Assembly (NCBI GenBank): GCA_964405015.1
Contig: CAYOME010000001.1
Location: 10,943 to 74,942, forward strand
DNA length: 64,000 nucleotides
Source of the DNA: an uncultured Candidatus Saccharibacteria bacterium
Lineage (GTDB): Bacteria; Patescibacteriota; Dojkabacteria; SC72
Direction: 5' to 3'
The notes under the pieces are model-generated. The model was not told the DNA's origin. It was given only the letters and a program-made list of their open reading frames with translations, and did no database searches. The position numbers were made by a program, and so were the translations under genes. Shown here piece after piece: positions 19,538 to 43,622 of the stretch. Every line of letters begins with the position of its first letter. Positions within the stretch are counted from its first letter, which is position 1.

Positions 19538-19636
19538 TAGGTGTCTATGTTAAGAAAGGTATTATTCGTAATACCCTGTGTAGGTTACCTTCTGTGTGCT
19601 TATCCGTAGTCTTTTTTATTTTTTATTTATATATAA

Positions 19637-19957: not shown

Positions 19958-19983
19958 TTCCTGAAGAAACTGTAATCGAAATT

Positions 19984-20010
19984 GGGGTAGGTAAAACTAC
20001 CCCTTTTTTA
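19984..20010. terminator. bidirectional rho-independent terminator between the convergent RRM gene and uvrB
   Basis: GGGGTAG-gtaaaa-CTACCCC followed by TTTTTTA on the plus strand, with an A-run on the other side. Confidence 0.6.
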
Positions 20011-21978: not shown

Positions 21979-22026
21979 TCCCCAATTTTATCAAAATATC
22001 CCATATCTGTGTTAAAATATTTTTGT

Positions 22027-23832: not shown

Positions 23833-24545
23833 TGAGGAAAACTGGTACTTTGTATTTAATACCAACATCTTTGTCCAAAAGACCTCTGAAGGAAGTACTG
23901 AAAGAATCGGATTTAGATATTGTTAGAAAGTTAAAATATTTTGTTGTAGAGACTCCAAAGGTAGCAAGATCATATCTAAAAGATATGGGTATGGTAATTC
24001 AAGAAATAGATATGAGGATATTGGATGAACATACTAATACTAAAAATATTTCCTTTCTTCTTCAACCGTTAATATCTGGTAATGATGTCGGTCTAATGAG
24101 TGATGCTGGTGCTCCAGGAATTGCAGATCCAGGGAGTATCGTTGTAAGAGAGTGCCATAGGTTAGGGGTTAAGGTTGTACCGTTAGTAGGCCCATCTTCC
24201 ATATTTTTAGCATTAATGGCTTCTGGTATGAATGGTCAATCTTTTACATTTCATGGATACCTTCCTAGGGATCCTCAAAAAAGGCAAGAGAAATTAAGAA
24301 ATATTGAGAGAGAATCTTTACGCAAGAATGAAACACAAATCTTCATAGAAGCTCCTTACAGAAACAAATCTATGTTTGAAAATATATTAGAAGTATGTAA
24401 ACCAAAGACAGATCTTTGTATGGCAGTTGATATTACTGGTGAAAATGAGAAGATATTCTCAATGAGTATCTCACAGTGGAGAATGCAAAAAGACTTACAT
24501 ATTCTTGATATACCTACGATATATTTAATATTAGCTAAAAGATGA
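23832..24545 (+). CDS. tetrapyrrole-methylase-fold SAM-dependent methyltransferase (RsmI-like)
   Basis: GTLYLIPTSL...VETPKVARSYLKDMG...MSDAGAPGIADPGSIVV...GVKVVPLVGPSSIFLAL...FTFHGYLP parallels RsmI motifs (VSDAGTP, DPG, PGxSA, GFLP). Confidence 0.6.
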   Translation: MRKTGTLYLIPTSLSKRPLKEVLKESDLDIVRKLKYFVVETPKVARSYLKDMGMVIQEIDMRILDEHTNTKNISFLLQPLISGNDVGLMSDAGAPGIADPGSIVVRECHRLGVKVVPLVGPSSIFLALMASGMNGQSFTFHGYLPRDPQKRQEKLRNIERESLRKNETQIFIEAPYRNKSMFENILEVCKPKTDLCMAVDITGENEKIFSMSISQWRMQKDLHILDIPTIYLILAKR

Positions 24546-26701
24546 TGAAGATATCAAAGAGATTTCTAATTCTCTCAATTTCAATATTTGTATGTTTAAT
24601 TGGGATTGGTTTTGGTATTTACAAATTGGTATCACACAGAATATATGTCGAAGACACGCCATATGATGTATTAATATCAGACATACAGAGTAACTCTGTA
24701 ACAATATCATGGAAGAGCAAAAAAGAACTTCCTACATATGTAAGGATAGGGGGGAATGAAAAACTCTTCGGTGAAAGTAAGCTTACAAAACTTCATAAGG
24801 TGACATTGGATGGTTTGAAAGAACTAAGCACATATTCTTTTGTGATTTCTGATGGTAAGAGAGATTGGGAAACCGTATCTAAAGAGAATTCTGATGAACT
24901 TTCTATATATTTAGCTAAAGAATATATCTTTAGTACTAAAGATATCCAAGACGATATATTAATACCTGAAGTTAAAGAGGTTAAGTCTTTGCCTAACGAA
25001 GAGGTATATCTTGTAGCTTTTAATCCAGAGGAAGGGAAACATTCTGAAGTTAAAAGATATGTTTCAAACAGATTTGGAGGTATAGCGGTTGATATTAATT
25101 CATTCGGAGGTATATCTGTAGATGAGAATACGCAGATTAAAGACATTAAATATGTAGAAAAAATTACTAGCATATCTCCTGTTTTTAAAACATATTTGTT
25201 TGCTGCAGATATCAATTGTGATCAGGGAGTTAAGGATCAAAGTGTTCCTGGTTCTACTAAACAAGGTTTTGCAGATTTAGCTACTAGATTTGTAGCTGGA
25301 AGAGGAAAACATCATGCTTTGGAATGTTACAATGATGTTGTATTAAGGGCCAAAAAGGCAGGGGTTGATCCTGCGTTTGCATTAACAATATGGTTAAATG
25401 AATCTGGTGCAAGCAACTATACTCAAAAACCAGAGATTTCAGGTATAGTAGAAGATTTTGGTATACATGGTCAAACATCTGCTCCTCCACAAGACTTTGA
25501 TAAACAGATTACTTTTTTCTTAAATCTTACCCATGGAGCAAGTTGTCCAGGATTAACATATTGGGAATCATGGGGAAATATGTATAGATGGGGAGATTGT
25601 AACGAAGACGATCCTGTTAAACGACAGGTAGGTATTGATTACTACAAGGGTATAGATGCAGTATATGGAATGGTTACTGGTGGTAGTCATTTGCCTTCAA
25701 AGATTAATGGATATCCACCTTCTGGTGATGATGGTGGTTCAGGAGATGATGGTGGATGGTCTAATGATGATGGTTCTCTTTGCTGTGCATTAAAATTAGA
25801 TAACAGGGAAAACCTTAAGGGAGACTATGAGAACAATGTTGAAGGTAAATCTTGTGCAGATGTATGGAAGGTTGGTAGATCTATAGATGGTGGTAAATTA
25901 GAATATTCTGTAGAAATTCCTGGTAAGACAGGTCAAGCATGTGAAGTAGAGTATGAAGGAGTATGTTGCCAATTATCTACAGATATTAAATGGTATCCCA
26001 AGAGCGTTTGTACAACTCAAATACCAAGTGTATCTTCTGCTCAAGCATGTAAAGAGTATGCTAACAACAGGGGTTGTTTTTTTAGGGATGGATCATTCCA
26101 ATGGTTACCTAAATCAATAGGGGATGATTTTGTAGTTGGTGTTACATCTGAATCACAATGTAAGGCTAGGAACAAACTTTCAACTTACAAAGTAAATATT
26201 GAGAAGGGTGTTAATTTTGTTGGTCTAGATTTCTCTCCTGTATATCAAGCAAAAGAGATGTATGCTTCTGACTTAATTAAATACAATACGAATATTCTTT
26301 TGGTAGGTAATTTTGTAGGTTATGAATGGAAAGATTTAGTATCCAAATCGCAAGATTTACCTTTTGCTGGTAATGACTTCTATCTTTCTCAAAACAAAGG
26401 ATATTTAATTGTCTCTGCTGAAGAATTTGTTTTAGAGTTAGATGGATGGAAGGATACTTCTGCTACATATCTACCTCTACAAACTGGTTGGAATCTTGTG
26501 GGTGGTAGTTTGTATACTAAATCTTCTAAGGCATCATCTTTAATATCCTCTATGAAAAGAAACAATGTCGATGTTGATGTTGTAGGTGTATGGTCTAAAG
26601 AGTTAGCAAGGTTTAATTACAGAAGAGAGGAAGAAGATGGTCAAACCTTTGGTGACGATGTAAAACTTGAAACAAATGTTGGAATATTTATTAGAAAGTA
26701 G
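24542..26701 (+). CDS. cysteine-rich cell-surface protein: N-terminal transmembrane anchor, FN3-like domain, Cys-rich core; paralog of 38520..41567
   Basis: Transmembrane segment FLILSISIFVCLIGIGFGIY, then SDIQSNSVTISWKSKK (FN3-like). A Gly/Asp-rich linker (GDDGGSGDDGGWSNDDG) and multiple CC/CxxxC pairs follow. The C-terminal ~150 aa align with the other gene (FVGLDF...GWNLVGG vs FVTFPF...GWNLIGT). Possible lysozyme-like motif TIWLNESGAS. Confidence 0.55.
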   Translation: MMKISKRFLILSISIFVCLIGIGFGIYKLVSHRIYVEDTPYDVLISDIQSNSVTISWKSKKELPTYVRIGGNEKLFGESKLTKLHKVTLDGLKELSTYSFVISDGKRDWETVSKENSDELSIYLAKEYIFSTKDIQDDILIPEVKEVKSLPNEEVYLVAFNPEEGKHSEVKRYVSNRFGGIAVDINSFGGISVDENTQIKDIKYVEKITSISPVFKTYLFAADINCDQGVKDQSVPGSTKQGFADLATRFVAGRGKHHALECYNDVVLRAKKAGVDPAFALTIWLNESGASNYTQKPEISGIVEDFGIHGQTSAPPQDFDKQITFFLNLTHGASCPGLTYWESWGNMYRWGDCNEDDPVKRQVGIDYYKGIDAVYGMVTGGSHLPSKINGYPPSGDDGGSGDDGGWSNDDGSLCCALKLDNRENLKGDYENNVEGKSCADVWKVGRSIDGGKLEYSVEIPGKTGQACEVEYEGVCCQLSTDIKWYPKSVCTTQIPSVSSAQACKEYANNRGCFFRDGSFQWLPKSIGDDFVVGVTSESQCKARNKLSTYKVNIEKGVNFVGLDFSPVYQAKEMYASDLIKYNTNILLVGNFVGYEWKDLVSKSQDLPFAGNDFYLSQNKGYLIVSAEEFVLELDGWKDTSATYLPLQTGWNLVGGSLYTKSSKASSLISSMKRNNVDVDVVGVWSKELARFNYRREEEDGQTFGDDVKLETNVGIFIRK

Positions 26702-26704
26702 TTA

Positions 26705-27517
26705 CTATTCTTTGTAATCAATCTGAATTAATCTCGCATGCATTACAATCCTAGTTGTTGGAGATGAGCAAGTAGAGAGAGTAAGAATTTTATCACGATT
26801 ATTAACTTCTACATTGAAATCATACTCACTTCGATTTTTTAAAAAAGTTAGGAAATATTCATAGGTCTTATCATTATTAAAATCCGTAACTATGTAATCG
26901 CTTGTTACAGGAACTTGGTAAACCGAAAATACCTCCCAAAGGGTATTGTGTGATTCTGTAGACATTCTAACTACATGATATTTAGTATTTGTATACCATT
27001 TACTCTTTCGTATGTTCTTTAGCGTTCCAAACAAGACTGTATTTATTCTCCCGTGTGCATATATAATATTGTTTCTATCAAGCTCTTGTATGTTATTTCG
27101 AGAATCTAAAAATACCCATCCTGCACGATTAGAACTTTTATCAAATGAATGATTGAGGTAAAAACTATTATCTGAATGTTGAACAAAAGGGTAGTTAATA
27201 TTTGTACCGAGTACTTCGATCCACCCCTTTGTTTCATTATTAATTTCTTTGAGCGAATCTAAAGGTACGTTTATCATAGAAAGGGAAGGATACTTAGTGT
27301 ATGGAGAATCTTCTAATGAGGATTCTTCATCTTCTAGACTTGTTATTGGTATTTCTTTTATCTCAACCATCTTATTAATGATTTGGATCTGATTGTCGAT
27401 AGAATGGGTGTCTTTAACCCATACCAAGATTGCAATGAATGTAATTAAAATTGTAATACTAAATACTATATATAGTGTGTATTTTGTCTTTATCAAATTG
27501 ATTTTCATTAAGAGCAA
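26705..27517 (-). CDS. srtB: class B sortase
   Basis: N-terminal transmembrane segment. GWIEVLGTNINYPFVQHSDNSFYLNHSF...NIIYAHGR (His)...ILTLSTCS (Cys)...RIVMHARL (Arg) follows the SrtB-type catalytic triad and spacing. Confidence 0.75.
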   Translation of the reverse strand: MLLMKINLIKTKYTLYIVFSITILITFIAILVWVKDTHSIDNQIQIINKMVEIKEIPITSLEDEESSLEDSPYTKYPSLSMINVPLDSLKEINNETKGWIEVLGTNINYPFVQHSDNSFYLNHSFDKSSNRAGWVFLDSRNNIQELDRNNIIYAHGRINTVLFGTLKNIRKSKWYTNTKYHVVRMSTESHNTLWEVFSVYQVPVTSDYIVTDFNNDKTYEYFLTFLKNRSEYDFNVEVNNRDKILTLSTCSSPTTRIVMHARLIQIDYKE

Positions 27518-27580
27518 TTGACAGCTAACAATTATATATTTATATTTATACTATCATAAATTTAAACATGCCCCTCTGCA

Positions 27581-29752
27581 ATGTCTAAAAAATTCTCAAA
27601 GATCTTCCTCTCGTTTTTAATTCTTTTCTCGTATATTTTACTTCCAATATCTCCAGCTATTGCTTTAGAAGCTCCAATTCAGAGTTTAGATGTTAATGGG
27701 GTTAATATCTTTAATATAGGTGGAGGATATAACTCTAGTCACGGTATCGCTGGTATATCCTACGATGTTCCAACACATACATTGACGCTTACTAATGCAT
27801 CTGTTGAAAATATTCATGCTTCTGGAGATCTTGATATTGTGATTGTGGGAACAAACTTTGTAACAAATCCTTCTAGTGGGGCTGCAATATTAGCTATGGG
27901 CGGTGATTTAACAATAACAGGGGATAGTGCATCTTTAACGATATCTCCTTCCGCGAGTAATGAGCCATCAATAACAATTGGAGTTAGTGGTAGGCTAACT
28001 ATTGGTGCTGCTGGTACTTCAATTACTGTTACAGTTACGGATGGTTTTTTAAATAATTGTGAAGATACGTATGTGGTTGATGGAAATACATTCACCCCAC
28101 CAGCTTCTGAAGATCCTTTAGGACCTCCACCCGGAGATCCATTGCAAATATTTGTAGATGGTTTCTTGGCTATAGATGAAACCTCTGACCCTCAAGTAAC
28201 ATCTGTAAGTGGTGAAGGTTGGAGTCTTGAACAGGGATTTATGGGTATCTATCAATTAAACGTTGAATCTGGGAGAACCCTTGGATATATTACGGGTTCT
28301 GGAGATGGTGCTCTTTCAATTAGTTCTTTGGATGGGAGTTTTACTATTGCAGAAAACGAAGATAGTAGATCAATAAATATGAATGGTAATGTAACGCTTT
28401 TCTTGGGAACCGAAATGGGAACTATTAATCTTGTAGGAGGTATATATACCGAAGGAGAAGTTATTGTTCGAGATGGTCAGAATGTTTCGATAGGAACATT
28501 GGGTGTACCAAGTAATACTGGTATAGCTTCTGGTGGTTTATATATTGGTAGTAGCGACCTTTCAATATACACAACAGGTACTGCATTAGCATATTACAAT
28601 CCAACCCCATTAGAGGGAGTGGGTATGTTAGTTGAGTCTGGACAAGGTCATACACTAACAGTATTCTCAAGTGATATTGCAACTGAAAATGTTGCAAGCT
28701 TACGCGTTTCCGGTGGTGGTACAATTGATTTATCATACACCTCATCTCTTGGATTATTTACACCAGAAGCATCACATTGGCCATGGACCGATATGACAGG
28801 TACAGAGGAAGAGAATCCTCTACCAACAACAGTGATCTGTGAAGAGGGAACGGATACCGATAATAAATATGTAATGACTTCTTCAGTTGGTAACTTCTTA
28901 CTAGAATCAACTGCAGGTACACTATACCAACTTGGATGGAATATACCCGATGCACAGGATTCAATTGTAACCAATGGTACGGTAAGGGTAATCGCAGCAA
29001 ATGGTTATAGATTTACCTCTGGTGGATACACCGACTATTCTATTGAAGCAGGTAGTACTGTCACTATTGAGCTATTGCCAGACTATGGTTATCAATATGT
29101 ATCTGGTGGTTTAAATGGTAATCAAACCCTACCTGACGAAGGAAAGGCCTCATATACATTTACTATGCCCGAAGGACATTTACACCTTAGTGCAATATTT
29201 GAAAGATCTTCTGATATTGTTAATTTAGATACAGACATTATTGACAATGCAGCTCTTGTAATGCCTTCTGGAGAAATCAATGGAAATGCAGAACTATTAA
29301 TCGATGAAGCTAGTGGAGTACAAGAAGATAAATTCTTAAATGCGGCTGGGGGATATGAAGTAGACACTTTCTTAGATCTATCTCTTAATGAGGTGATATA
29401 TAAAGGAACTACAGAAGAGGTATGGAGAACTAATTTAACAGAGTTAGAGGAAGAAACTACAGTGACATTAACACTTTCGGATGAGTTAGAGGGTCATGGT
29501 GAATACAAGGTGTTAAGAGAGCACGATGGTGTTGTAGAGGTTCTTGATGCTGTATATGACCCTTCTACGGGGGCATTAACATTCGATACGGACTCTTTCT
29601 CTACATATGCCATAGCATATAACGATGAAACTAATCCAAATACATATGACAATATATCAATATTTGCCATTATTGGATTTGCAAGCATATTAGGGTTAAC
29701 AGGAATGTTTGTATATGAAAGAAGATTTCTTAAGAAGAGAGAACTTGTTTAA
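27581..29752 (+). CDS. secreted surface protein with C-terminal sortase-type sorting signal (NPNT motif)
   Basis: Signal peptide MSKKFSKIFLSFLILFSYILLPISPAIA. A Gly/Thr/Ser-rich repetitive body (beta-helix/adhesin-like) follows. C-terminus is ...NDETNPNTYDN-ISIFAIIGFASILGLTGMFVY-ERRFLKKRELV, i.e. motif, hydrophobic span, then basic tail. Confidence 0.6.
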   Translation: MSKKFSKIFLSFLILFSYILLPISPAIALEAPIQSLDVNGVNIFNIGGGYNSSHGIAGISYDVPTHTLTLTNASVENIHASGDLDIVIVGTNFVTNPSSGAAILAMGGDLTITGDSASLTISPSASNEPSITIGVSGRLTIGAAGTSITVTVTDGFLNNCEDTYVVDGNTFTPPASEDPLGPPPGDPLQIFVDGFLAIDETSDPQVTSVSGEGWSLEQGFMGIYQLNVESGRTLGYITGSGDGALSISSLDGSFTIAENEDSRSINMNGNVTLFLGTEMGTINLVGGIYTEGEVIVRDGQNVSIGTLGVPSNTGIASGGLYIGSSDLSIYTTGTALAYYNPTPLEGVGMLVESGQGHTLTVFSSDIATENVASLRVSGGGTIDLSYTSSLGLFTPEASHWPWTDMTGTEEENPLPTTVICEEGTDTDNKYVMTSSVGNFLLESTAGTLYQLGWNIPDAQDSIVTNGTVRVIAANGYRFTSGGYTDYSIEAGSTVTIELLPDYGYQYVSGGLNGNQTLPDEGKASYTFTMPEGHLHLSAIFERSSDIVNLDTDIIDNAALVMPSGEINGNAELLIDEASGVQEDKFLNAAGGYEVDTFLDLSLNEVIYKGTTEEVWRTNLTELEEETTVTLTLSDELEGHGEYKVLREHDGVVEVLDAVYDPSTGALTFDTDSFSTYAIAYNDETNPNTYDNISIFAIIGFASILGLTGMFVYERRFLKKRELV

Positions 29753-29885
29753 TTAATAATTTCTTTTTAAGATATTTTAGAATTATTTCTAGAACATTTC
29801 TCTATTTAAGAGGTATGTCTAACATATCATCTTGAAGGCCTTTACGTACCCTTTCTAGAGGTTATATGTGATCATATGACTCTAG

Positions 29886-30242
29886 TTATCTTCTTACACA
29901 CTTTTTGGATATACCGTCGACTTCTTTTTCTTCATCTGTTAAATCAACAGCTTTTAAACCTTCACAACAATATGGCTGTGGTAATATTACAGGGATATAT
30001 TGGTTTTCTTCTATACAATTAAGTTCCTTGTTTGGAACTGTATATGAGAAGTATTTGAATGAAACATCCTCATTCTGTATTAATTCAAAAATAAATATTC
30101 CTAGAGGTTCTACATCATATTGAGTACCATTTGGACCATATGAAATACATTCTTTGTCTATGGATTGGCAATTAGCAGGTATTGGAAGAAGAAGAGAAGT
30201 AATTACAATGAGAATTGATATCAAGAGGGGATATTTTTTCAA
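29886..30242 (-). CDS. small secreted cysteine-rich protein
   Basis: Signal peptide MKKYPLLISILIVITSLLLPIPANC; 7 Cys in the ~95-aa mature part, including a CC pair. Confidence 0.45.
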   Translation of the reverse strand: MKKYPLLISILIVITSLLLPIPANCQSIDKECISYGPNGTQYDVEPLGIFIFELIQNEDVSFKYFSYTVPNKELNCIEENQYIPVILPQPYCCEGLKAVDLTDEEKEVDGISKKCVRR

Positions 30243-30308
30243 AATAGTAAATATATATTAACTTAACAATATATATTAATTGAAAATTATGGAAAAATCT
30301 ATATGAAA

Positions 30309-30382
30309 TCGGGGAGACAGGACTTGAACCTGCGGCCTCTGCGTCCCAAACGCAGCGTTCTAGCCAACTGAACTACTCCCCG
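30309..30382 (-). tRNA. tRNA-Pro (anticodon TGG)
   Basis: The reverse complement gives CGGGGAG-TA-GTTCAGTTGGCTAGAAC-G-CTGCG-TTTGGGA-CGCAG-AGGCC-GCAGG-TTCAAGT-CCTGT-CTCCCCG-A. It has anticodon UGG and G37; CCA is not encoded. Confidence 0.85.
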
Positions 30383-30432
30383 ATACAAAACTTATGAATT
30401 TTATCACAGATATATCAATTAAAAAAGGATAT

Positions 30433-33400: not shown

Positions 33401-36400
33401 TAGAAATCAACAGGTGTGTGTGATGTACCATACCCTTCAAAAAAGGTTTCTGCTCTAGCATTAACAATCATGTATATTTCATTATCTGAAACTACCTCGA
33501 TTTGGTTAAGTATTTCAGTGTCATAATATGATTCAACAATTCTTGTCCATTGGTAGCCGAGAGTATTAGAAAACTTTGTTAAATATATATGCCTGTCTTC
33601 GTTTGCAGCAGTTTTGGTATCTACTCCAGCTGTAGAATCAAAATCTATAGTAGGACCTCCCCAGTATCCACCTACATATACATTACCTGTTGAATCTGTT
33701 TCAATATCTATTACTTCTTCATCAAGATTTTCTCCTAATATACTGATTGCATTAACAAATGTACGATCCGAGATATTAAACTTACTTATAAAGACATCAC
33801 CGTGAGCAAGATTAGGTAATATACTTACACCGGATGTACCATCCGCATCAAAATCACTAGCATACATACTTCCACCTACAAAGATATGTTGAGCTGTTAC
33901 TTCTATGTCTGTTACCTTGTCTGATCTGGAAACATCCGAACTACCAAATACAAAGGATTCTATGTATGTATCTGAAGAATCATATATTGAAACGAAGGCA
34001 TCTCCTCGACCAATGGCAGTTTTTGAGTCTATACCAGCATTAAGATTTAAATCGGTCGTTCCTTCAAAGTAGCCACCTATGTATAAATTGTCATTGGAAT
34101 CTATTGTACAGGTGGAGAGTAATTCATTAGGACCCGCAAATACTTTTGCCCATACGAATGCCCCTTGATTATCTCTTTTAATTAGATATGAATCTGCATA
34201 CCCTGTTGAAACAGAATATATTGCTGTTCCATCTGGATATCCTAGGTTAACATCAGTTCCTTCGAATTGACCCAAAGTATACGAAGAACCATCACTTGTA
34301 GTACATATATCTAAAGCAGATACACGGATATCTGCTTCAAAACCAGTATTTCCCCAATCTAGTTTAAGTCCAGTTAAATATGGGTTTGTATCTCGGTAAA
34401 TAGATACTGTATATGTATCTACTGTTCTTCTATCTTCAGCAATAACGGTGATTGTTACGGTATTGTCTCCAGGGTCAAGTGATATGGATTGGCTACTAGT
34501 ACCTGATACTACATTGGAACCATTTACTTGTAAGGAGTATGCATCAGGATCAAAAAGAGTAGGTGTTAACGTTATATTCGTAATATCAGAAGTAACCTCT
34601 ACAGTATATGTTCTTGTGTTAGTGCTAAATACTGGATTTAGTGTTCCAGAAGAGATAGTTAAGCTAGAGAGTCTTGTGTCTGTAGAATATGGTGGTGTAG
34701 AACCATCATCTCTCCAAACAGTAAGTGTATATGTTTTTGTTGTAATACCATCTCCAGCAGTTACAATGATTTCAAATATGTTGTTACCTAAGTTAAGTGG
34801 CAATGCCAAACCGAATTCTCCATTAGTTACTGAAGTTCCATTGACCGTAATTCCTGAGATATTAAAATCTTGTGCTGTTGGTCTTAAAGCAAGGGAAGTG
34901 ATGCCTGCATCTAGAACTATTGTATATGCTGTAGTGTTTGGATCGAAATCTGGTATAAATATTCCTTGTGTTGATTCTAAATTTGAAAGATTTGCATTAT
35001 CTTGAGTAACTTGACCAAAATTAGCAATGAAGCCATCATATAATCCAATTGCTGTTATTGCATTTTCACTTATACTTGGATCAAGATCAGTAGTCCCATA
35101 CATTACTCCTCCAACAAACATCTCATCTATTGAAGGGAATACAACTGAACTTACCTCAACCCAATCATCAGAATCAAAAGTTTTCGTCCAGATATATGAA
35201 TCAGAGCTATTTATTTGCATAACGTAGCCAGAACCTCCACCAGCAATTACATTTTTATTATCTACCCCAGCTGAAGGATCAAAGTCAACAGTGTCATCGA
35301 AATATCCAAATACAAAGATATTGTCTTCAAGATTAATAGTTAACCCCTTTAATGAATCCCAGCTTGATCCTCCATATGTTTTTACCCATGTTGTATCCCC
35401 AGTTGCATCTAATTTGATTAGAAATACATCGTCAGTTGAACTTATACTTGAATATTCAATAGTTTGATTGTTAGGATCTAAGAGGGCAACATCTCCATCG
35501 GTACTAAATGTACCACCAAGTACAACATTGCCCAACGAATCGGAATCTAAACCTCCATCTACAACATCTATGTAATCTTGACTAGTTATGGTCTTTGTCC
35601 ATTGATAGTTTCCATTTATATCCAATTTTGAAATATATATGCTTCCACCGTTGTATTCAGAAAAAATGTCTGTACTTGCACTTGGATCAAAATCGATATT
35701 AATACCCCTAAATCTACCTAAAGAATATACGTTTCCATTTACATCTACATTGATATGGGAATATTGAACATAGTTCCCTGATGAACTACTTGCTGTAGTT
35801 TCATATGTCTTTGACCAAGTAAACCCTCCAGTTTCAGTAAATTTTGTAACAAAGGCATGAGTTCTGTTGAAACCGTAGGTGACAATATATTCACCTTCTG
35901 TAGGATCTAAATCCAATGAAGACATAAAGGTACCACCTACATAGATGTTTCCAGTTGAATCCATATCTACACTGTATGAATAGTCTTCAAAAAATGTACT
36001 TCCCCAAGTTAGTATGTTTCCAACAGTTCCATTTGAATTAATCATTATCATATGGGCATCCCTTGGTCCTCCTGATGCTCTTGAATCAGTATTTGTTGTA
36101 GGATCTAAATCTACGGTACCTCCAAATGAACCAACAGCAACAATATTGTCATTGCTATCTACCATTAAGTCATTTATTAATACAAACGGTACGCTTGTAC
36201 TGAAATCATATGTCCATCTTAGTACCCATAACGGGTTTTGTGAGGAATCTAATTTCATCAGGTAAGTACCACTTAACATGTCATCGCCATTTGAAGGTAC
36301 ACCAAAGTCAACTGGACCATCCCTAAATGTACCTGAAACATAGAAATTTCCAGTTGAATCCATATCCATATTCTCCACTTCTATTCTACTTCCAAGATCG

Positions 36401-38343
36401 CCTAACTGTTTTGAGGATATATATGTATATTCACTTCCTTGTGGTACTGGTTTATTTACAGTAATTGTATATGTAGAGGTTTCAGTTAGATCCTCAGAAG
36501 TAACTACTACATTAATTTCGTTTGCACCACTACTAAGAGGGATGGGTGAACTAGCAACACCGCTTACCAAAGCATATCCGTTAACTGCGAGTCTAGAATT
36601 TGTATCTGCACTAGTTGCTGTTATTGAAACAGTTTCAACAGTCCCATCAACATCTAAGGTATAGCTGTAACTAACAGCTGAAAAAGAAGGAGCTACAGGA
36701 CCTTCGCTTGTGGTTAAAGACATTAGATATGAATCTGAGGAGAAACTCTCACCTGGTACAGTTAAGTTACCAACAGGATCATTTATATCTACTGCTATAT
36801 ATGGATAGAAGATTGAAACAAAAATATCTGTATTGTATGTAGAAGCAACTGGACCTCCTAAAATATACTCATTTGCAGAAGGATCAAAATCTGTATCTTC
36901 GAGATACGCACCCATTGCATATACTCTGTTTTTTGAATCAATACCTAAGTCGTAAAGATCTGAATATGCATAGCTTGTATTCTCATTTCTACCCCATGAA
37001 TATGTTTTTAAATATGTACCATCATTATTAATTACAGTTATATATGACCAAGCTTGATTTGTCATAGCAGAATGGATATCTGTACTTCCACTAAAATCAA
37101 AATCAACATTTGTACTTGTAAATCCACCACCTATATATACATTTCCATATGTATCTGTATCTAATGCAAAGGCAAATTCACTGCCAGTACCACCAAATCT
37201 TTGAGTCCAAGCATATGGATTATCTAAATCAAATGGGTTTGCACTTACATTCCACTTAGTAACAAAGGAATCTCTGCTACCAGAACTAGAGATTGAGTCT
37301 AAATTAGTTGAAGGGTCAAAATCGACAGTATTTTCAAATCTTCCAGCAATATATATGTTCTCACTTGAATCAAACACGAACTCTTTAAGTTCAACACCTG
37401 CCAAGAGAACAGTTCCAAGGTATGTATTTGTTGGAGTAAGTTTAGTAATAAAACTAGAAGAAACCGCACCAGTTGTTATACTATCATCACCTGCACCTGG
37501 ATCAAAATCTACGGTTGTATTTGAAGATATTCCGGAACCTACGTATACATCACCGGTAGACTCCTTAATCCTTACATTATGCTCAAACAAACCTCCAAGA
37601 TTTCCATATACATTTCCCCATTGGAAATTACCATCTAAATCAAATTTGGAGATAAGGAAACCACTGTTTGCTGATGTAACAGATCCAGCTCCAGGATCAA
37701 TATCTACATTGGGACTGTAAAGATGACCAGCGACATACAAAGCATTCCTAGTTGTATCAACGGCAAGATTGTATGCATAGTCATATTCGGTTCCACCCCA
37801 TGTTTTAGTCCAACCATATGTTCCATTGGAATTAATCTTCATAATGAAAGCATCGTAAGAACTTGTTGCTGTCTTACTATCTGTACCTGCGGTGAAATCA
37901 AAATCAACAGTACCATTGAAATCGCCGGAAAGGTATATATTTCCACTAGAATCTAATGCAATTCCCCCAGCACCAACATCCCCAGAAAGTGTACCTAAGG
38001 TAATACCCCACATATATACCTTCTCTGGGGAGTATTTAGACAAGAAGAATGTACCATTAGAAATTGCACTACCACTATTCCAGTTAAGATCAATATTTGT
38101 TGGATCATAGCTGTCATCGTATATCTCTCCAACAATGTAGTAGTTATCACTACTATCAAAGGCACTTTTTATTGGGAAATATGTTGAGTTATCATCATTA
38201 AAACTCTTTGTACCAATATATCCTAAACCTGTTACTCTTGCTTGAGCGTTTGCAGGAGTGTTGAAAAAGAAAACTAATCCTAAAAAGGAAATGATTAGAG
38301 TAATTAATACTCTTGATACCTGTTTAAAGCAGTTTGATCTCAT
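30433..38343 (-). CDS. giant (2636 aa) cell-surface protein: signal peptide, SBBP beta-propeller repeats, cadherin-like and Ig-like domains, acidic Pro/Thr/Glu linker, polytopic C-terminal anchor with two CarboxypepD_reg-like beta-sandwich domains
   Basis: Dozens of ~50-aa repeats of the form SGNIYLSGDFNGTVDFDFTAGTDSKTATSSYDAFIMKINSNGTYGWTKTWGG (SBBP/PF06739-like). Three repeats like LSNLESTQGIFIPDFDPNTTAYTIVL...YTLTVWR are cadherin-like. An FEFPFYDDIYTNIQIGTNG (NIDO-like) segment is also present. Linker EEPTTPGGGTTNPPTNEDPVEIPEENPDESPNENPEVDDDE. C-terminus has 4-5 transmembrane helices flanking GVVYNSTTKEPLNRAIVRIFDIEGKIV and RITDEKGRYRFIVPGGKYKL. Confidence 0.75.
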   Translation of the reverse strand: MRSNCFKQVSRVLITLIISFLGLVFFFNTPANAQARVTGLGYIGTKSFNDDNSTYFPIKSAFDSSDNYYIVGEIYDDSYDPTNIDLNWNSGSAISNGTFFLSKYSPEKVYMWGITLGTLSGDVGAGGIALDSSGNIYLSGDFNGTVDFDFTAGTDSKTATSSYDAFIMKINSNGTYGWTKTWGGTEYDYAYNLAVDTTRNALYVAGHLYSPNVDIDPGAGSVTSANSGFLISKFDLDGNFQWGNVYGNLGGLFEHNVRIKESTGDVYVGSGISSNTTVDFDPGAGDDSITTGAVSSSFITKLTPTNTYLGTVLLAGVELKEFVFDSSENIYIAGRFENTVDFDPSTNLDSISSSGSRDSFVTKWNVSANPFDLDNPYAWTQRFGGTGSEFAFALDTDTYGNVYIGGGFTSTNVDFDFSGSTDIHSAMTNQAWSYITVINNDGTYLKTYSWGRNENTSYAYSDLYDLGIDSKNRVYAMGAYLEDTDFDPSANEYILGGPVASTYNTDIFVSIFYPYIAVDINDPVGNLTVPGESFSSDSYLMSLTTSEGPVAPSFSAVSYSYTLDVDGTVETVSITATSADTNSRLAVNGYALVSGVASSPIPLSSGANEINVVVTSEDLTETSTYTITVNKPVPQGSEYTYISSKQLGDLGSRIEVENMDMDSTGNFYVSGTFRDGPVDFGVPSNGDDMLSGTYLMKLDSSQNPLWVLRWTYDFSTSVPFVLINDLMVDSNDNIVAVGSFGGTVDLDPTTNTDSRASGGPRDAHMIMINSNGTVGNILTWGSTFFEDYSYSVDMDSTGNIYVGGTFMSSLDLDPTEGEYIVTYGFNRTHAFVTKFTETGGFTWSKTYETTASSSSGNYVQYSHINVDVNGNVYSLGRFRGINIDFDPSASTDIFSEYNGGSIYISKLDINGNYQWTKTITSQDYIDVVDGGLDSDSLGNVVLGGTFSTDGDVALLDPNNQTIEYSSISSTDDVFLIKLDATGDTTWVKTYGGSSWDSLKGLTINLEDNIFVFGYFDDTVDFDPSAGVDNKNVIAGGGSGYVMQINSSDSYIWTKTFDSDDWVEVSSVVFPSIDEMFVGGVMYGTTDLDPSISENAITAIGLYDGFIANFGQVTQDNANLSNLESTQGIFIPDFDPNTTAYTIVLDAGITSLALRPTAQDFNISGITVNGTSVTNGEFGLALPLNLGNNIFEIIVTAGDGITTKTYTLTVWRDDGSTPPYSTDTRLSSLTISSGTLNPVFSTNTRTYTVEVTSDITNITLTPTLFDPDAYSLQVNGSNVVSGTSSQSISLDPGDNTVTITVIAEDRRTVDTYTVSIYRDTNPYLTGLKLDWGNTGFEADIRVSALDICTTSDGSSYTLGQFEGTDVNLGYPDGTAIYSVSTGYADSYLIKRDNQGAFVWAKVFAGPNELLSTCTIDSNDNLYIGGYFEGTTDLNLNAGIDSKTAIGRGDAFVSIYDSSDTYIESFVFGSSDVSRSDKVTDIEVTAQHIFVGGSMYASDFDADGTSGVSILPNLAHGDVFISKFNISDRTFVNAISILGENLDEEVIDIETDSTGNVYVGGYWGGPTIDFDSTAGVDTKTAANEDRHIYLTKFSNTLGYQWTRIVESYYDTEILNQIEVVSDNEIYMIVNARAETFFEGYGTSHTPVDFYSDGILLKYSSTGTLDAPKILSSNNSAEYNGITVFNNKIYISGSFRNILDVDFTEGSRTLTSTASMGNAFVQIFDTSLNYLNAVKIGLSNGGKLANSIDGIYMFGKSWYPRENISPTYIPYYLSTQYTQYNHLYLIKYLETPINRVFNTNTSYAVIDSIFSSPVNTLYFTPEEDVVTSIIQQGTIGSTNILEQENPGSTIYQQIGTKVFAGDDDTISLDLPFEFPFYDDIYTNIQIGTNGMICFDLTKSCDGYLDSGYDDTFFGPFISPLTLDTETDVTPQQGIYIDSTTERFIVSWRAQEYGYSGTEIEYSLILYPNGEFEFVYGPQTQNFSSSSVYIGVGAGDGIRYTQASNDGLLNYNQYPTLKWSPAAKPTKLANFNLDMSINRDISSISGDMDKQTGKSVIQNTQNIAGLTDIDMYIPYRNDLNISRVLVCPEATNLSEISYSCNNAQLIKVGLSGITNTTYLGDPYLKITNALPKGVMAVSANTFTVSASDTQLTEGESTSITITVIDSEGNPDPDYEGTIDIISNITGLSTTYTFLATDNGSKVFSDIAINGAGSYVVTAQDTLDEEILGVSTSIVVTAPIEEPGDESPTEEPTTPGGGTTNPPTNEDPVEIPEENPDESPNENPEVDDDESPTDEDDKGSDEQDDETTNTGVFGYIVDVFNSIVEDIRDILESPEKTERVAYTATGILIAISVTSATIGTTYPLAYVLQIGTLFFAGLKIKNKERGYGVVYNSTTKEPLNRAIVRIFDIEGKIVTTAVTNTFGAFDVNLPEGVYSISVQVRDHVFPSRVIKGGTDMPYENIYNGQQFNHNPNTPITFSIPVDPIDKSFVEYASVVFRNRIHNLFNALQNILLIGGFIFVLITYINLHRPIDLIILILYSLLILLNLYIYIKGRRKYGVVKDIYNDIVQGVNVGLRETEFDTIYARRITDEKGRYRFIVPGGKYKLEMLDENLTINTEKELTYDTDSDKILNINPDLELRRK

Positions 38344-38424
38344 TTAGTCTGTAATAAAGATTAGAGATAATATAATGTATCGGTTATAGAAACGGTAGTC
38401 AACCTATTTTGTATTAGAGGATAC

Positions 38425-38455
38425 AATTAATAATTGATAATTGATAATTGATATT
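38425..38455. repeat. heptanucleotide microsatellite (TAATTGA)x4-5 in the divergent promoter region between the giant gene and 38520..41567
   Basis: caattaa taattga taattga taattga tattg. Confidence 0.5.
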
Positions 38456-38519
38456 GCAAACTCTCTATACCTTCTGTACTATATATTTGAGTAAAATAAC
38501 CTAATAAATTTCTTTTAAA

Positions 38520-41500
38520 ATGGATAAAAGTATAGTTACTAAGTATAGAATTAAGAAGGTACTTAAGGTATTTAGTATAACTCTTTTAATTCTCTTTCTT
38601 TCCATAATTGTATTTGGATATATAAGAACAATACCAAGAGATATTAAGGTATCAAACCTTTCATCTAGTTCATTTACTGTGAGTTGGAATACAAGATTTG
38701 CAACAAACGGTTCAGTTTTTGTAATAGATGAAAAGAACAAATTACCTCTTGGTATATTAGGTATTGGTAAGAAATTGTTTAATGATACAAGGGATGTAAG
38801 AGCTTCGGAGATTATGGCCACTTATGAGACTGCTAACAAGATATATGAGAAGAATTCTGTAGGTATATATATAGATGATTTTGTTACTGAGAGAAGTATT
38901 ACAAATAGAGGATCATATTTTACTCATCATGTAGAAGTTAAAGGTTTAGATCCAGAGTCAGAATATAGCCTAATGATAGGGGATGGAATTTTCTTTTACA
39001 ATTTAAATATTGTAAACAATGAGATCAGTATTAATACTGATAATATTGCAGAGAATATCTCTACTCCTGTACCTGCATATGGAAGGATAGAAGATGCTAA
39101 CAATGAAGAGAAAACAATAGAAGAATTAGATCCTGTTGAGGATGCTGTTGTATATATCAACTATTTTGATGAAACTACGGGAGAAAGAAGTAATGTGTTT
39201 TCCAGCTCTGTAAATGAGAATGGTGCTTGGTATATAGATCTTTCTACGGCAGTAGATAAGGATGGTAATAATTTTGTTGAAACATACTCTAAACAAATTA
39301 CAAATATTGAAATGGAGTTAGCTATTGATGCAGGACCCTTAGGTAAATGGGAAAGAAGAATATCTCCTGAAACTAGTTCTCCTTTAGAAACATTGGTATT
39401 AAATATCCCTGGTGCTTCATATGGTGATGATATTCCAGATGTTCTACATCGTACAGATATGCCTTCTGATAGTACTTTTGTAAAGGGTGTTAGTGCTTTG
39501 GAGGATGGTTGTAAACAGATTGGTTTTTGTAGTTGTGGTGTTAGACAGAATAATAGATGGGAAAACTGTGCTTGTGATGCCGATGTTATGGAGAGAAGGG
39601 GTTGTAATGGTCAAACAGATGCTCAGGCAGCTGCTCAATCAATCACCCCACAAGAAGCTTATAGAGAAACTTGTGCTGGTGGTGGGGTACAGGGAAGCAT
39701 GGTATATCATGGTACAAGTTGTCTTAAGTGTGATGATGGGAGATGGGTTCCTTCATCGGGTTGTGATACATCAAGGGGTGCAGCTATATATACCCCTACT
39801 GTGACCGAGACTAGAGAGGATGATGATTCGGTTATTAAAGAGAAAGAAGATGCACCAAATTTTTCCGATGAAGCTTTACGTAATAGGATCATTGTTGATA
39901 ATTGTAGGCCAGAAACTGTTGGGCGTTCCTGCAAGGTCGGTGATAATATCGGAACCTGTTTTGGTTCAGCCTATGGTTCATACACATGTCAAATTGGAGC
40001 AGAACCCATAATAGATGATTATAGTGACGACAAAAAAGAATCAAAAACAAGAACAAGAAAAGTAATTGTGAAGCCAAATGTAGAAACAAAAACATTCTGT
40101 ACAAATATAGACGAGAATATTGCTTTCGGATTTCTTGATTCAAATGGAAACTGTGTAAAATCAGAATTAACAATAAAGGATGTTCAAGGAGCCTCATGTA
40201 GAGGGGCTGATTTGCAAGTTCAAGTTTATGATAATTCGACTTTAAAAACTTATGAATGCAAAGATAATGAGCTAGTAGAAAGTTCTAAAAAAATAGATAA
40301 ATGTGATGAAGGCTCCTCATGTTTTGATAAGTGGCCGACATCTACATGTATAACTACCGAAGGCTTATTACTTGATTGTAATACTGTAACTGAAGAGGGT
40401 CTGTTTAAATGGGAAATAGAAGAAGGAGCTCAAGAGAGAGCCGCAATAAAAGTTGAACCAGTTGAAAAGGGGGCCGTTTGTGATGGTGATGCTGGTTGTT
40501 TCTGTTCTAATAAAGTAGGTGGGTATATTTCAGATGGAGAAACTTGTCCAGAGGTTCTTTTTTGTCGAAACTGGGGGCCATTAGGTAATACTGATGGTAA
40601 AAAGTGTGGAATGGAAGGAAATGTATGCTCTGGTTCAAAATGTGAACCTCAAGAAAAACTAGATCCGAATGATCCAAATAATGGATCGGCTTTAATACCA
40701 AGGGTAATTGCCCAGGAAGTAGAAGAACAAAAAGAAACTGAATATCTTATTGATCAAACATCTGGAAAAATCTTAGGGATTACTCCCGGTGTATATACAA
40801 TTATGGATGGTGATGAAATATATATGTTTACTATCAAGGAAAAAGACATTACCGGTGAAAAAGGAGATATCTTGATATATATTGACTCAAATCGGGACGG
40901 TGTCTTTACTGAAGGGACCGATAAAAAGATTTCAGATTTTGGATCAACAATAAAAATAAATTCTGTAAGTCAAACATTTAAATACAATTTAAAAGCTGGA
41001 TATAATTTTGTAACATTCCCTTTCCTTATCGATGATCATACTGCTCGATCAGCAGCTGGATTGATAGATATGATAAATTTTCAATATGAAGACGCACTAT
41101 TCTCAATTGCAAAATATGATGGAACATGGAAAGTAGTAGGAGGTAATGGAGATACATATGACGCTAATGATTTCCAATTAGTACCAGGGCAAGGATATAT
41201 ATTAAAAGCTAAAAGGAATTTAGAAATCTCTGTCATTGGTAAACCAGTCAAGTTAGACACAACAACAGACAGTGCACCTATCTCCCTCTTCCCAGGATGG
41301 AACTTAATAGGTACATATGGGAGTAATGTAAAACAATATACAGCAAAGAGTCTAATACAGGGTATTAACTCATATGAACCAGTAGACTTTACAGCAGATA
41401 ACGTAAGTAGGTGGGAATCAGACGTACAAAGATATGATGGATTCCAAGTTACAAATGAGAATGGAATAGATATTGAGTATGGGTTTGATTTCCCTATTAA

Positions 41501-41567
41501 TACTTTACAATCCTACTTCGTAAGGATATTAAACGGAAGAGGGAACTGGCAACAGGAGGTTAAATAA
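38520..41567 (+). CDS. cysteine-rich cell-surface protein (1015 aa): N-terminal transmembrane anchor, FN3-like domain, Cys-rich core; paralog of 24542..26701
   Basis: Transmembrane segment VFSITLLILFLSIIVFGYI, then VSNLSSSSFTVSWNTRFATNGSV (FN3-like). More than 50 Cys occur in CxC/CxxC/CxxxC patterns over residues ~330-700. The C-terminal domain is shared with 24542..26701 (GYNFVTFPF...LFPGWNLIGT). Confidence 0.55.
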   Translation: MDKSIVTKYRIKKVLKVFSITLLILFLSIIVFGYIRTIPRDIKVSNLSSSSFTVSWNTRFATNGSVFVIDEKNKLPLGILGIGKKLFNDTRDVRASEIMATYETANKIYEKNSVGIYIDDFVTERSITNRGSYFTHHVEVKGLDPESEYSLMIGDGIFFYNLNIVNNEISINTDNIAENISTPVPAYGRIEDANNEEKTIEELDPVEDAVVYINYFDETTGERSNVFSSSVNENGAWYIDLSTAVDKDGNNFVETYSKQITNIEMELAIDAGPLGKWERRISPETSSPLETLVLNIPGASYGDDIPDVLHRTDMPSDSTFVKGVSALEDGCKQIGFCSCGVRQNNRWENCACDADVMERRGCNGQTDAQAAAQSITPQEAYRETCAGGGVQGSMVYHGTSCLKCDDGRWVPSSGCDTSRGAAIYTPTVTETREDDDSVIKEKEDAPNFSDEALRNRIIVDNCRPETVGRSCKVGDNIGTCFGSAYGSYTCQIGAEPIIDDYSDDKKESKTRTRKVIVKPNVETKTFCTNIDENIAFGFLDSNGNCVKSELTIKDVQGASCRGADLQVQVYDNSTLKTYECKDNELVESSKKIDKCDEGSSCFDKWPTSTCITTEGLLLDCNTVTEEGLFKWEIEEGAQERAAIKVEPVEKGAVCDGDAGCFCSNKVGGYISDGETCPEVLFCRNWGPLGNTDGKKCGMEGNVCSGSKCEPQEKLDPNDPNNGSALIPRVIAQEVEEQKETEYLIDQTSGKILGITPGVYTIMDGDEIYMFTIKEKDITGEKGDILIYIDSNRDGVFTEGTDKKISDFGSTIKINSVSQTFKYNLKAGYNFVTFPFLIDDHTARSAAGLIDMINFQYEDALFSIAKYDGTWKVVGGNGDTYDANDFQLVPGQGYILKAKRNLEISVIGKPVKLDTTTDSAPISLFPGWNLIGTYGSNVKQYTAKSLIQGINSYEPVDFTADNVSRWESDVQRYDGFQVTNENGIDIEYGFDFPINTLQSYFVRILNGRGNWQQEVK

Positions 41568-43602: not shown

Positions 43603-43622
43603 AGCAGGGGACAGTAAAAATA

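Follow-up and report, generated by a model that had tools for sequence, protein, structure and literature searches.

Gene content of the locus

The analyzed window, the whole 64-kb stretch of DNA under study, contains a 17-kb region of envelope-protein genes with a tRNA gene in its middle. The region begins with parA (24542–26701, + strand, 719 aa), encoding a conserved Dojkabacteria envelope protein, followed by srtB (26705–27517, − strand, 270 aa) for a class B sortase and, across a divergent intergenic region of 63 nt (27518–27580), by the gene for a 723-aa sortase substrate (27581–29752, + strand). Beyond these lie orf118 (29886–30242, − strand), encoding a putative small secreted protein of 118 aa with a hydrophobic N-terminus and six cysteines; tRNA-Pro(TGG) (30308–30383, − strand), located between parA and parB in 6/6 genomes compared; the gene for a giant protein of 2636 aa (30433–38343, − strand); and parB (38520–41567, + strand, 1015 aa). 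No homolog of orf118 was found adjoining other srtB cassettes. The ORF listing and a tRNA check reproduced all gene coordinates of an initial annotation of this DNA, together with its mid-locus tRNA-Pro, and its count of five large envelope proteins was corrected to four. Homologs carry the name Candidatus Dojkabacteria, in agreement with the small-genome CPR lineage that had been expected.

The sortase and its cognate substrate form a two-gene cassette

Sortases are common in CPR bacteria (PMC6744442). The product of srtB scored 163.8 bits against TIGR03064 in an NCBIfam search, above the curated equivalog cut-off of 153.75, and 36.2 versus 26.6 for Pfam Sortase. Its alignment with Staphylococcus aureus SrtB (1ng5) was full-length (E 2.7e-33) and brought catalytic His155, Cys250 (in TLSTC), and Arg256 into register; the above-cut-off score and the conserved His, Cys, and Arg residues confirm its identity as a sortase B. 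An N-terminal hydrophobic segment (aa 16–34) serves as membrane anchor, and we infer that the catalytic domain lies outside the membrane. Within the intergenic region, an 11/12 sigma-70-like match (TTGACA-17-TATATT, 27518–27546, + strand) is a consensus match alone, and the total count of such matches there did not exceed that in shuffles.

The substrate starts with a signal peptide (aa 1 to ~28, AIA/LE junction, hydrophobic aa 8–26), which is followed by a right-handed β-helix at aa ~30–460 in the fold model, a Flg_new_2/InlB B-repeat (aa 483–543), and β-sandwich stalk domains between the B-repeat and the sorting signal. The signal NPNTYDN (aa 685–691, nt 29633–29653, + strand) precedes a C-terminal transmembrane helix (aa 692–712) and the basic tail ERRFLKKRELV; this is the sole sorting-signal-like C-terminus in the window. 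NPxT was present in 58/58 homologs and Asp at +2 in 56/58 (N58, P58, T58, Y44/F9, D56, G33/N22), giving the consensus NPxT[YF]D[GN]. The proposal that this tail is a sorting signal, encoded divergently from srtB, is supported by the tail itself, the linked sortase, and the conserved motif. Against it, NCBIfam searches at E ≤ 10 returned no family for the 75-aa tail or for the protein as a whole, and P1′ is occupied by an aromatic residue (Y/F), in contrast to the G/N/S of characterized SrtB substrates. The near-invariant Asp agrees with the requirement of Bacillus anthracis SrtB for Asp at P2′ (PMC11987632).

The divergent srtB/substrate pair was retained in four other contexts (L001, L012/L013, L014, and L015), each with different neighbors and with NPxT[YF]D[GN] as the signal in every case. 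The giant protein, parA, and parB were absent from these four contexts, and the anchor module of the giant protein, described below, was not found there. Each cassette contains one substrate gene and lacks an additional pilin or sortase; that of L012 lies among defense-type genes (N6_Mtase, HEPN, and SocA_Panacea). Conservation of the pair in other genomes bears out the earlier view that sortase and adjoining NPxT substrate belong together, and the real functional unit of the locus is this self-contained two-gene cassette.

In the mechanism we propose, the membrane-anchored class B sortase acts on one cognate substrate, whose gene is divergent from its own. This protein would be exported via Sec and retained through the basic tail and the helix at its C-terminus, whereupon the His-Cys-Arg sortase would cut after Thr in NPxT[YF]D[GN] and move the substrate to a peptidoglycan amine. 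Such wall attachment would display the β-helix on its β-sandwich stalk, with a head acting as an adhesin or as a glycan-binding or glycan-cutting domain.

Polymerization of the 723-aa protein into a pilus-like fiber, rather than anchoring of monomers to the wall, appears very improbable. The class B sortase SrtB of Streptococcus pyogenes polymerizes pili and provides a precedent (PMC11987632), and one stalk domain of the substrate contains an invariant Lys (K608, in EVIYKG). Related sortases from MAGs of Bacilli also adjoin proteins ending in VPQTFD. That ending is pilin-like, resembling pilin signals of the (Q/E)VPTG type. The sortase nevertheless aligns better with NPQTN-type SrtB (E 2.7e-33) than with 3psq, the pilus sortase of S. 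pyogenes (E 1.1e-22), its cassette has only the single substrate, and the substrate is a β-helix rather than a CnaB/Ig pilin fold.

For the putatively wall-anchored substrate, the predicted head is an adhesin-like right-handed β-helix. The binding proteins Cthe_2159 and SRRP took the top two places among the fold matches of the model, ahead of autotransporter adhesins and tapirins. It is rather unlikely that this protein is an enzyme that degrades host capsule, EPS, or wall polymers, whether as a polysaccharide lyase or as a depolymerase: both top matches only bind, Pfam and PDB sequence profile searches returned no catalytic family, and no catalytic residues were found.

A recurrent membrane module as the predicted anchor of the giant protein

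The ectodomain of the giant protein follows an N-terminal signal peptide and alternates propellers with cadherin-like domains: propeller 1 (aa 57–514), cadherin-like 1 (aa 540–632), propeller 2 (aa 648–1116), cadherin-like 2 and 3 (aa 1118–1318), and propeller 3 (aa 1336 to ~1800). The three cadherin-like domains named in the initial annotation were all recovered by PF12733 (178.5 bits, E 3e-53, above the gathering score). An iterated, self-built repeat HMM identified ~19 clear blades of 62 aa each, grouped into three blocks; this fits three 7-bladed propellers and ~19–21 blades in total, fewer than the more than 25 SBBP repeats originally counted. The SBBP-type designation is upheld by the HMM-defined blades and by a match to NF047494 (E 5.5e-35), but not by PF06739, which reached 12.4 bits against a gathering score of 20.5 (E 0.16, six stretches). 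Since the NF047494 match falls under the equivalog cut-off, the protein is not a LipL53 orthologue.

Two further assignments, both made by eye, found no such backing. The NIDO-like segment (aa ~1840–2030) had as its sole support a FPFYDD...GTNGMICF motif, and neither Pfam nor PDB sequence searches returned a match at E ≤ 10 in aa 1840–2030; for the Ig-like domain (aa 2137–2234), the one Ig-type match was Big_3_5 at E 0.12, far under cut-off. An acidic, Pro-rich linker (aa ~2235–2306) leads from here to the C-terminal module.

This module (aa ~2330–2636, nt 30436–31356, − strand) consists of one or more hydrophobic segments, a K/R cluster, a first CarboxypepD_reg domain, two predicted transmembrane helices, a further K/R cluster, and a second CarboxypepD_reg domain. 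PF13620 matched two stretches at 33.4 bits against a gathering score of 32.3, with hydrophobic helices around them. An exhaustive search with the module yielded 3156 matches; 2152 cluster representatives reached E ≤ 1e-10, and 159 of them E ≤ 1e-30. Among the matches listed, the module occupied the C-terminal end of proteins of 200–4586 aa; its layout was kept across 71 sequences, the ectodomains varied, and the named proteins came from Dojkabacteria. The module thus recurs as an anchor in thousands of large proteins that are dissimilar in other respects, and the domain and helix layout, together with this recurrence, supports the earlier view that it, and not a sorting signal, holds the giant protein. 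Export would proceed by the N-terminal signal peptide and retention by the ~300-aa membrane module, with no involvement of sortase. The T9SS C-terminal sorting domain TIGR04183 was considered as a candidate and rejected: it scored 20.4 against 23 bits, at an internal position (aa 2384–2446) overlapping the first CarboxypepD_reg domain. The anchor module represents the most novel lead in the locus.

parA and parB, a probable ancestral pair with different cores

The two flanking proteins matched each other in BLASTP (E 1e-6), and the cross-match was found again in three genomes. parA comprises an N-terminal transmembrane segment (aa 8–26), two FN3-like β-sandwiches (aa ~39–205), a lysozyme-like domain (aa ~222–385, nt ~25205–25696, + strand), a Cys-rich region (aa ~411–545), and a C-terminal domain in common with parB (aa ~546–719). 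parB has an N-terminal transmembrane segment (aa 14–32), an FN3/Pur_ac_phosph_N-like domain (aa ~39–155), a long core containing 30 cysteines (aa 331–708), and the homologous C-terminal domain (aa ~806–1015, nt 40935–41564, + strand); the shared C-terminal domain measures ~190 aa. The layout ascribed to both proteins accordingly stands for the N-terminal transmembrane segment, the FN3-like region, and the C-terminal domain, whereas the cores differ and the lysozyme-like domain occurs in parA alone. parA has 15 cysteines and parB 30, not the more than 50 attributed to the protein at 38520. Both are disulfide-rich envelope proteins with a membrane anchor at the N-terminus, and their genes probably constitute an ancestral tandem pair.

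The lysozyme-like fold of parA had escaped the initial annotation. Neither Pfam nor PDB sequence profiles matched this domain. E261 and E287, candidates for the catalytic Glu, are invariant, the latter as part of an invariant E287-S288 pair, and in P0113 a domain of the parA type is fused to Peptidase_M23. parA is predicted to be a peptidoglycan glycosidase.

A conserved backbone encloses a variable tRNA-Pro slot

We compared six genomes, the present one and five related Dojkabacteria (L016–L020). The backbone uvrB-mutL-rsmI-parA-tRNAPro-parB-DUF4870-lexA-nrdG-nrdD is common to the relatives, and parB orthologues adjoin parA in all five. In the closest relative, L016, the parA-parB gap measures ~200 nt with tRNA-Pro alone inside, and blastn collinearity with this genome breaks exactly at window positions 26702/30309 and 30433/38520. 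Relative to L016, the present genome has two extra blocks: block A (26703–30308), which adds srtB, the substrate gene, and orf118 3′ of tRNA-Pro, and block B (30434–38519), which adds the giant gene 5′ of it. In L017–L020, the same interval contains unrelated cargo (a P-type ATPase, a methyltransferase, or other surface proteins). These arrangements define a variable slot, a short stretch to either side of tRNA-Pro in which the cargo differs from genome to genome.

These data bear directly on the proposal that the whole 17 kb constitutes a single dedicated apparatus for adhesion or host contact, with parts that belong and function together. All products are predicted envelope proteins, the genes are contiguous, slot cargo is surface-protein-like in 3/6 genomes, and the multiple adhesins needed for epibiotic growth of Saccharibacteria offer a precedent (PMC10633639). 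The single-apparatus proposal nonetheless fails because of synteny: the slot is empty in L016, where parA and parB are adjacent and the other genes missing, and it contains unrelated cargo, including an ATPase or a methyltransferase, in four genomes. The srtB/substrate pair, moreover, occurs elsewhere without the giant protein, its anchor module, parA, or parB. We therefore regard a single apparatus as clearly improbable; for individual proteins, adhesion or host contact is a reasonable functional guess.

We favor, with a probability of roughly two in three, the interpretation that three pieces independent of one another make up the region as a mosaic: the backbone, the variable slot, and the cargo of the present genome. 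How the cargo arrived is a separate matter. Blocks A and B might be remnants of integrative mobile elements targeting tRNA-Pro, the surface genes being horizontally acquired island cargo; cargo abuts both ends of the tRNA and differs among the six genomes, and the defense-type neighborhood of the L012 cassette and the origin of the nearest out-of-family sortases in MAGs of Bacilli and 'Tenericutes' (~50% identity) point the same way. However, neither an integrase or recombinase ORF nor direct repeats derived from the tRNA were present in the slot, the GC and GC3 of its cargo were indistinguishable from those of backbone genes, with no compositional anomaly, and the named substrate homologs were all from Dojkabacteria. 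This origin is consequently unlikely, and the variation in the slot may reflect an ancestral locus of larger size from which genes were lost differentially.

Comparison with known systems

The mosaic locus resembles tRNA-associated islands and hypervariable surface loci in carrying variable cargo beside a conserved tRNA in a conserved backbone. It differs from tRNA-associated islands in that integrase, att repeats, and compositional signature are lacking and the tRNA has cargo to either side.

The cassette belongs to the same enzyme family as the SrtB-IsdC systems of S. aureus and B. anthracis (NPQTN/NPKTG(D)), with which it shares one cognate substrate next door, an N-P-x-T start, and a hydrophobic span with a basic tail; Asp at P2′ is a further likeness to the B. 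anthracis signal. In contrast to those systems, the substrate is a 723-aa β-helix protein rather than a NEAT-domain heme receptor, the signature extends over seven residues with an aromatic P1′, and the host is a CPR bacterium. The substrate compares in fold with Lactobacillus reuteri SRRP and other LPXTG-anchored β-solenoid adhesins, autotransporter passengers (Hap, pertactin, and Ag43), and Caldicellulosiruptor tapirins, although sequence similarity to SRRP, autotransporters, and tapirins was not detectable by Pfam or PDB sequence profile. Unlike SRRP and autotransporters, it has a class B rather than class A signal and lacks serine-rich repeats and a β-barrel translocator.

For parA, the comparison set comprises GH73 N-acetylglucosaminidases and lysozyme-like hydrolases (Clostridioides difficile endolysin Ecd09610, LytB, and FlgJ), with g-type lysozyme and Slt/MltF in addition. 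The Pfam and PDB searches gave no sequence match to these hydrolases, and in contrast to GH73 enzymes the lysozyme-like domain belongs to a membrane-anchored protein, where FN3-like domains precede it and a Cys-rich one follows. The giant protein shares its 62-aa SBBP-like blades with Leptospira LipL53-family SBBP lipoproteins (NF047494) and its PF12733 β-sandwiches with SBBP/cadherin-like giant surface proteins. It departs from the LipL53 type by interleaving three propellers with cadherin-like domains and by resting on a polytopic C-terminal module rather than on a lipid or a sorting signal.

Genomic context of the tRNA-Pro region

The region comprises six reading frames and one tRNA gene, all lying where the initial annotation had placed them: parA (24542-26701, + strand, 719 aa), a sortase gene (26705-27517, - strand, 270 aa), the gene for its substrate (27581-29752, + strand, 723 aa), the small orf118 (29886-30242, - strand, 118 aa), tRNA-Pro(TGG) (30308-30383, - strand), a giant-protein gene (30433-38343, - strand, 2636 aa) and parB (38520-41567, + strand, 1015 aa). 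The large envelope proteins among these number four, not five as previously counted. Housekeeping genes (uvrB, mutL, rsmI) lie upstream, and genes for a DUF4870-like membrane protein, lexA, nrdG and nrdD lie downstream. GC content of the window is 33.5%, and composition runs across the region without a break. An Rfam search of the window returned three tRNAs and nothing else.

Comparison with L016 (GCA_964621195.1), the closest relative available, whose parA is 69% identical, revealed the order uvrB-mutL-rsmI-parA-tRNAPro-parB-DUF4870-lexA-nrdG-nrdD, with about 200 nt from parA to parB and tRNA-Pro alone between them. At the nucleotide level the two sequences stay collinear up to window position 26702. 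A 125-nt collinear stretch, 94% identical, then covers the tRNA together with its upstream region (30309-30433), and collinearity picks up once more at 38520. These gaps define two blocks that are extra in the window: Block A (26703-30308), on the 3' side of tRNA-Pro, with sortase, substrate and orf118, and Block B (30434-38519), on its 5' side, with the giant gene. The backbone is kept in four further Dojkabacteria genomes, and the interval is filled differently: a 134-aa ORF to one side of the tRNA and 807-aa Flg_new_2/Ig and 189-aa proteins to the other (L017), a P-type ATPase with two small ORFs (L018), a 974-aa DUF2341/Ig protein (L019), and DUF134 with a methyltransferase (L020). The conserved backbone and its differing fill indicate that parA and parB are an ancestral tandem pair enclosing a variable slot around tRNA-Pro.

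This arrangement is at odds with the proposal that the locus forms one integrated 17-kb apparatus for adhesion or host contact: parA and parB are adjacent in L016 and enclose other cargo in L017-L020, which indicates that the parts were inherited separately. A recent integrative island was also considered and is unsupported, since no tRNA-derived direct repeats or att-like sites occur in 26400-30500, no integrase ORF was found, and the cargo genes show no GC or GC3 anomaly. Most of the underlying observation stands, though several of its numbers and domain calls were wrong; the integrated reading is unsupported. The clustering is easy to over-read: the envelope genes are neighbours here on account of a variable slot in the genome, not because they form a co-evolved machine.

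Homologues of parA, the 723-aa protein and the C-terminal module of the giant protein all derive, where the source is named, from 'Candidatus Dojkabacteria bacterium', and a 724-kb contig carries one parA homologue, making the guess of a small-genome CPR organism reasonable. Pyruvate:ferredoxin oxidoreductase-type and ADP-forming acetyl-CoA synthetase-type proteins are encoded at 56099-60756 (+ strand) and, together with nrdD/nrdG (42767-45674), point to an anaerobic fermentative lifestyle. Between nrdG and nrdD, L018 (21098-21235) and L020 (19020-19157) each have a further, separate ORF of 45 aa that matches Pfam NRDD; no equivalent was called in the window. The product of orf118, encoded between the substrate gene and tRNA-Pro, has a hydrophobic N-terminus and six cysteines; it matches no family and lacks homologues in the other sortase-substrate loci. 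Matches in a promoter/terminator scan were not enriched over shuffles, the sole one noted being an 11/12 promoter match in the srtB-substrate spacer.

The giant protein and its C-terminal anchor module

Domain searches recovered the three cadherin-like domains (PF12733, E 3e-53) and two CarboxypepD_reg-like domains (PF13620) that had been assigned to the giant protein. The SBBP propellers gained partial support: the NCBIfam SBBP-propeller lipoprotein model matched at E 5.5e-35, below its equivalog cut-off, but PF06739 reached only E 0.16. Counted with an HMM built from the giant protein itself, the clear 62-aa blades come to about 19, not the more than 25 repeats first proposed. They fall into three blocks (aa 57-514, 648-1116 and 1336-1729), which fits three seven-bladed propellers. 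The NIDO-like segment had no Pfam match for NIDO at E<=10 and no PDB sequence match, and the sole Ig-type match (Big_3_5, E 0.12) lay far below cut-off. A T9SS sorting-domain match was rejected because it is below cut-off, internal, and overlaps CarboxypepD_reg.

The anchor module, the last ~300 aa of this protein, begins with one or two hydrophobic segments, a K/R cluster and the first CarboxypepD_reg domain, and continues with two clear TM helices, read as a hairpin, a second K/R cluster and the second CarboxypepD_reg domain. A word-indexed protein search with the module returned three relatives, a misleading figure against the exhaustive search, which gave 3156 cluster representatives at E<=1e-3, of which 2152 reach E<=1e-10 and 159 reach E<=1e-30. 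Among the 150 matches listed, the carriers are 200-4586 aa long, with the module at their C-terminal end. Source-named carriers are Dojkabacteria, many have signal-peptide-like N-termini, and their ectodomains vary (cadherin-like, GLUG, NHL, SBBP, Big_13). As judged from these sequences, the module is a recurrent anchoring device shared by large surface proteins of a domain-shuffled family; a literature search found no description of it.

The CarboxypepD_reg domains are beta-sandwiches, the first prealbumin-like; both are directly preceded by K/R clusters, and the second hydrophobic segment is amphipathic in periodicity. From these features we infer that both sandwiches may lie on the cytoplasmic side, in which case the module would link the giant surface proteins to an intracellular partner. 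Of the leads from this locus, the anchor module and the tRNA-Pro slot stand out as the most interesting. Tentatively, with a probability of about 0.3, we propose that the former is an undescribed, lineage-wide anchoring module retaining domain-shuffled Dojkabacteria surface giants and that, together with the slot, it constitutes a surface-diversifying system in an episymbiotic lineage.

The class B sortase and its substrate

Scoring 163.8 bits, the sortase exceeds the 153.75-bit cut-off of TIGR03064, the equivalog model for class B, as the initial annotation had proposed. It aligned along the entire catalytic domain to the NPQTN-specific SrtB of S. aureus (1ng5, E 2.7e-33). His155, Arg256 and, within TLSTC, Cys250 are all present, and the protein has a hydrophobic anchor at its N-terminus. 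The sorting signal recognized earlier on the 723-aa protein was likewise borne out: its tail consists of NPNTYDN, a 21-residue hydrophobic span and ERRFLKKRELV, and is the only sorting-signal-like tail in the 64-kb window. The N-terminus is signal-peptide-like. NCBIfam gave no match to this tail even at E<=10.

The substrate family is compact (61 matches, mostly 700-745 aa), and N-P-x-T occurs in 58/58 members with a complete C-terminus. Among these 58, the next position is Tyr in 44 and Phe in 9, the residue after it is Asp in 56, and that Asp is followed by Gly in 33 and Asn in 22; a hydrophobic span and basic tail come after the signature. Neighbourhoods were compared on relatives' contigs, as exact-sequence look-ups of the window's own pair gave no contig. 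The divergent arrangement recurs in four other genomic contexts (L001, L012/L013, L014 and L015) with different neighbours in each, the signature of a dedicated two-gene cassette, and the sortase with its adjoining NPxT substrate is the solid core of the locus.

Two of these contexts hold further envelope or defence genes. In L012 (1-9000) the cassette lies beside defence-type genes (an N6 methyltransferase with S subunit, HEPN_Cthe2314, SocA_Panacea/HTH and DUF2779) in what is another variable region. In L014 ('bacterium ADurb.Bin212'; 17386-22199, - strand) a nearby gene of >3557 aa, adjoining a MacB/FtsX ABC pair, encodes another giant envelope protein, with Laminin_G_3, Toxin_R_bind_N and Pur_ac_phosph_N domains and without the anchor module.

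Distant sortase relatives (~50% identity) occur in Bacilli and 'Tenericutes' MAGs. Beside them are ~495-aa proteins (L004:8285-9763, L005:8280-9770 and L008:5853-7358, all - strand; MAGs of Bacilli, 'Tenericutes' and Mycoplasma sp. CAG:776) that are unrelated and end in (E)VPQTFD, a hydrophobic span/TM and KRR. An xPxT[YF]D signal thus seems to accompany this sortase subfamily, and these neighbouring proteins hint at a broader group of SrtB enzymes specific for xPxT[YF]D, with substrates dedicated to them. A literature search found no Dojkabacteria sortase system beyond a general CPR survey.

An AlphaFold2 model of the substrate (40 homologues, mean pLDDT 85.5) comprises a long right-handed beta-helix (aa ~30-460), beta-sandwich domains that include a Flg_new_2/InlB B-repeat match, and a C-terminal helix; the substrate profile had no match among PDB sequences. 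The model supports a surface-displayed binding head, with binding/adhesin-type proteins leading the fold matches. Pectate lyases and phage tailspike depolymerases come after them, and a glycan-cutting enzyme is a live alternative to the binding head. In the stalk beta-sandwich of the family, K608 is an invariant Lys in EVIYKG, the only hint towards possible intermolecular cross-linking.

A predicted peptidoglycan glycosidase in the tandem pair

The flanking proteins had been described as paralogs, and they do share an N-terminal TM helix, an FN3/purple-acid-phosphatase-N-like sandwich and a C-terminal domain of ~190 aa, whose similarity is weak but reproducible in three genomes (E 1e-6 to 6e-10). 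The more than 50 cysteines attributed to parB did not hold: it has 30, and parA has 15. These Cys-rich envelope proteins are consistent with the reported enrichment of CPR genomes in extracytoplasmic disulfide-forming proteins and in sortases (PMC6744442).

In parA, Glu287-Ser288 and Glu261 are invariant in 36 homologues. Its lysozyme-like domain also lies near the C-terminus of other 750-1100-aa proteins (P0112-P0133, 35-50% identity), accompanied in P0113 by Peptidase_M23, and was detected neither by Pfam nor by the PDB sequence profile. That profile matched FN3 only; Foldseek of the parA model against the PDB likewise gave FN3-type matches only, with none for the domain common with parB, and parB had no match among PDB sequences. 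The domain looks like an unmodelled peptidoglycan-hydrolase family, and parA reads as a membrane-tethered, disulfide-rich, predicted peptidoglycan glycosidase, which the first reading had missed. Directly downstream of parB in 6/6 genomes is a 118-aa three-TM protein (41639-41995, - strand; 78% identical in L016) with a weak DUF4870/MamF_MmsF match, which may belong functionally with parB.

Proposed working and comparison with known systems

Sec would export the substrate, whose C-terminal helix and basic tail would then hold it in place. By homology with SrtB of S. aureus and B. anthracis, the membrane-anchored sortase would cleave NPxT|[YF]D to a thioacyl intermediate on Cys250, which a peptidoglycan amine would resolve. 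The beta-helix head, displayed on a short stalk, may then bind or cut a glycan or partner-cell surface. The giant protein, once exported, would be retained by its own membrane module without involvement of the sortase, and parA, judging from its fold, would act on peptidoglycan at the cell surface. None of these steps would need the others.

We know of nothing in Dojkabacteria comparable to the adhesins of cultivated Patescibacteria. Those cultivated members grow attached to their hosts and require several adhesins (PMC10633639). Concrete candidates emerge from the locus. One is a sortase B that has a single defined substrate bearing the seven-residue signal NPxT[YF]D[GN]; another is a recurrent C-terminal anchor that flags Dojkabacteria giant surface proteins in metagenomes; a third, as modelled, is a lysozyme-like protein, conserved and tethered to the membrane, whose target could be the wall of the host or that of the cell itself. 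The aromatic P1' and obligatory P2' Asp of the signal could be informative for SrtB specificity and for the engineering of sortase ligation. SrtB of B. anthracis requires a P2' Asp beyond NPKTG (PMC11987632), and this requirement matches the near-invariant Asp two residues past the predicted scissile Thr in the substrate family; the P1' position, by contrast, is aromatic, unlike that of characterised SrtB substrates.
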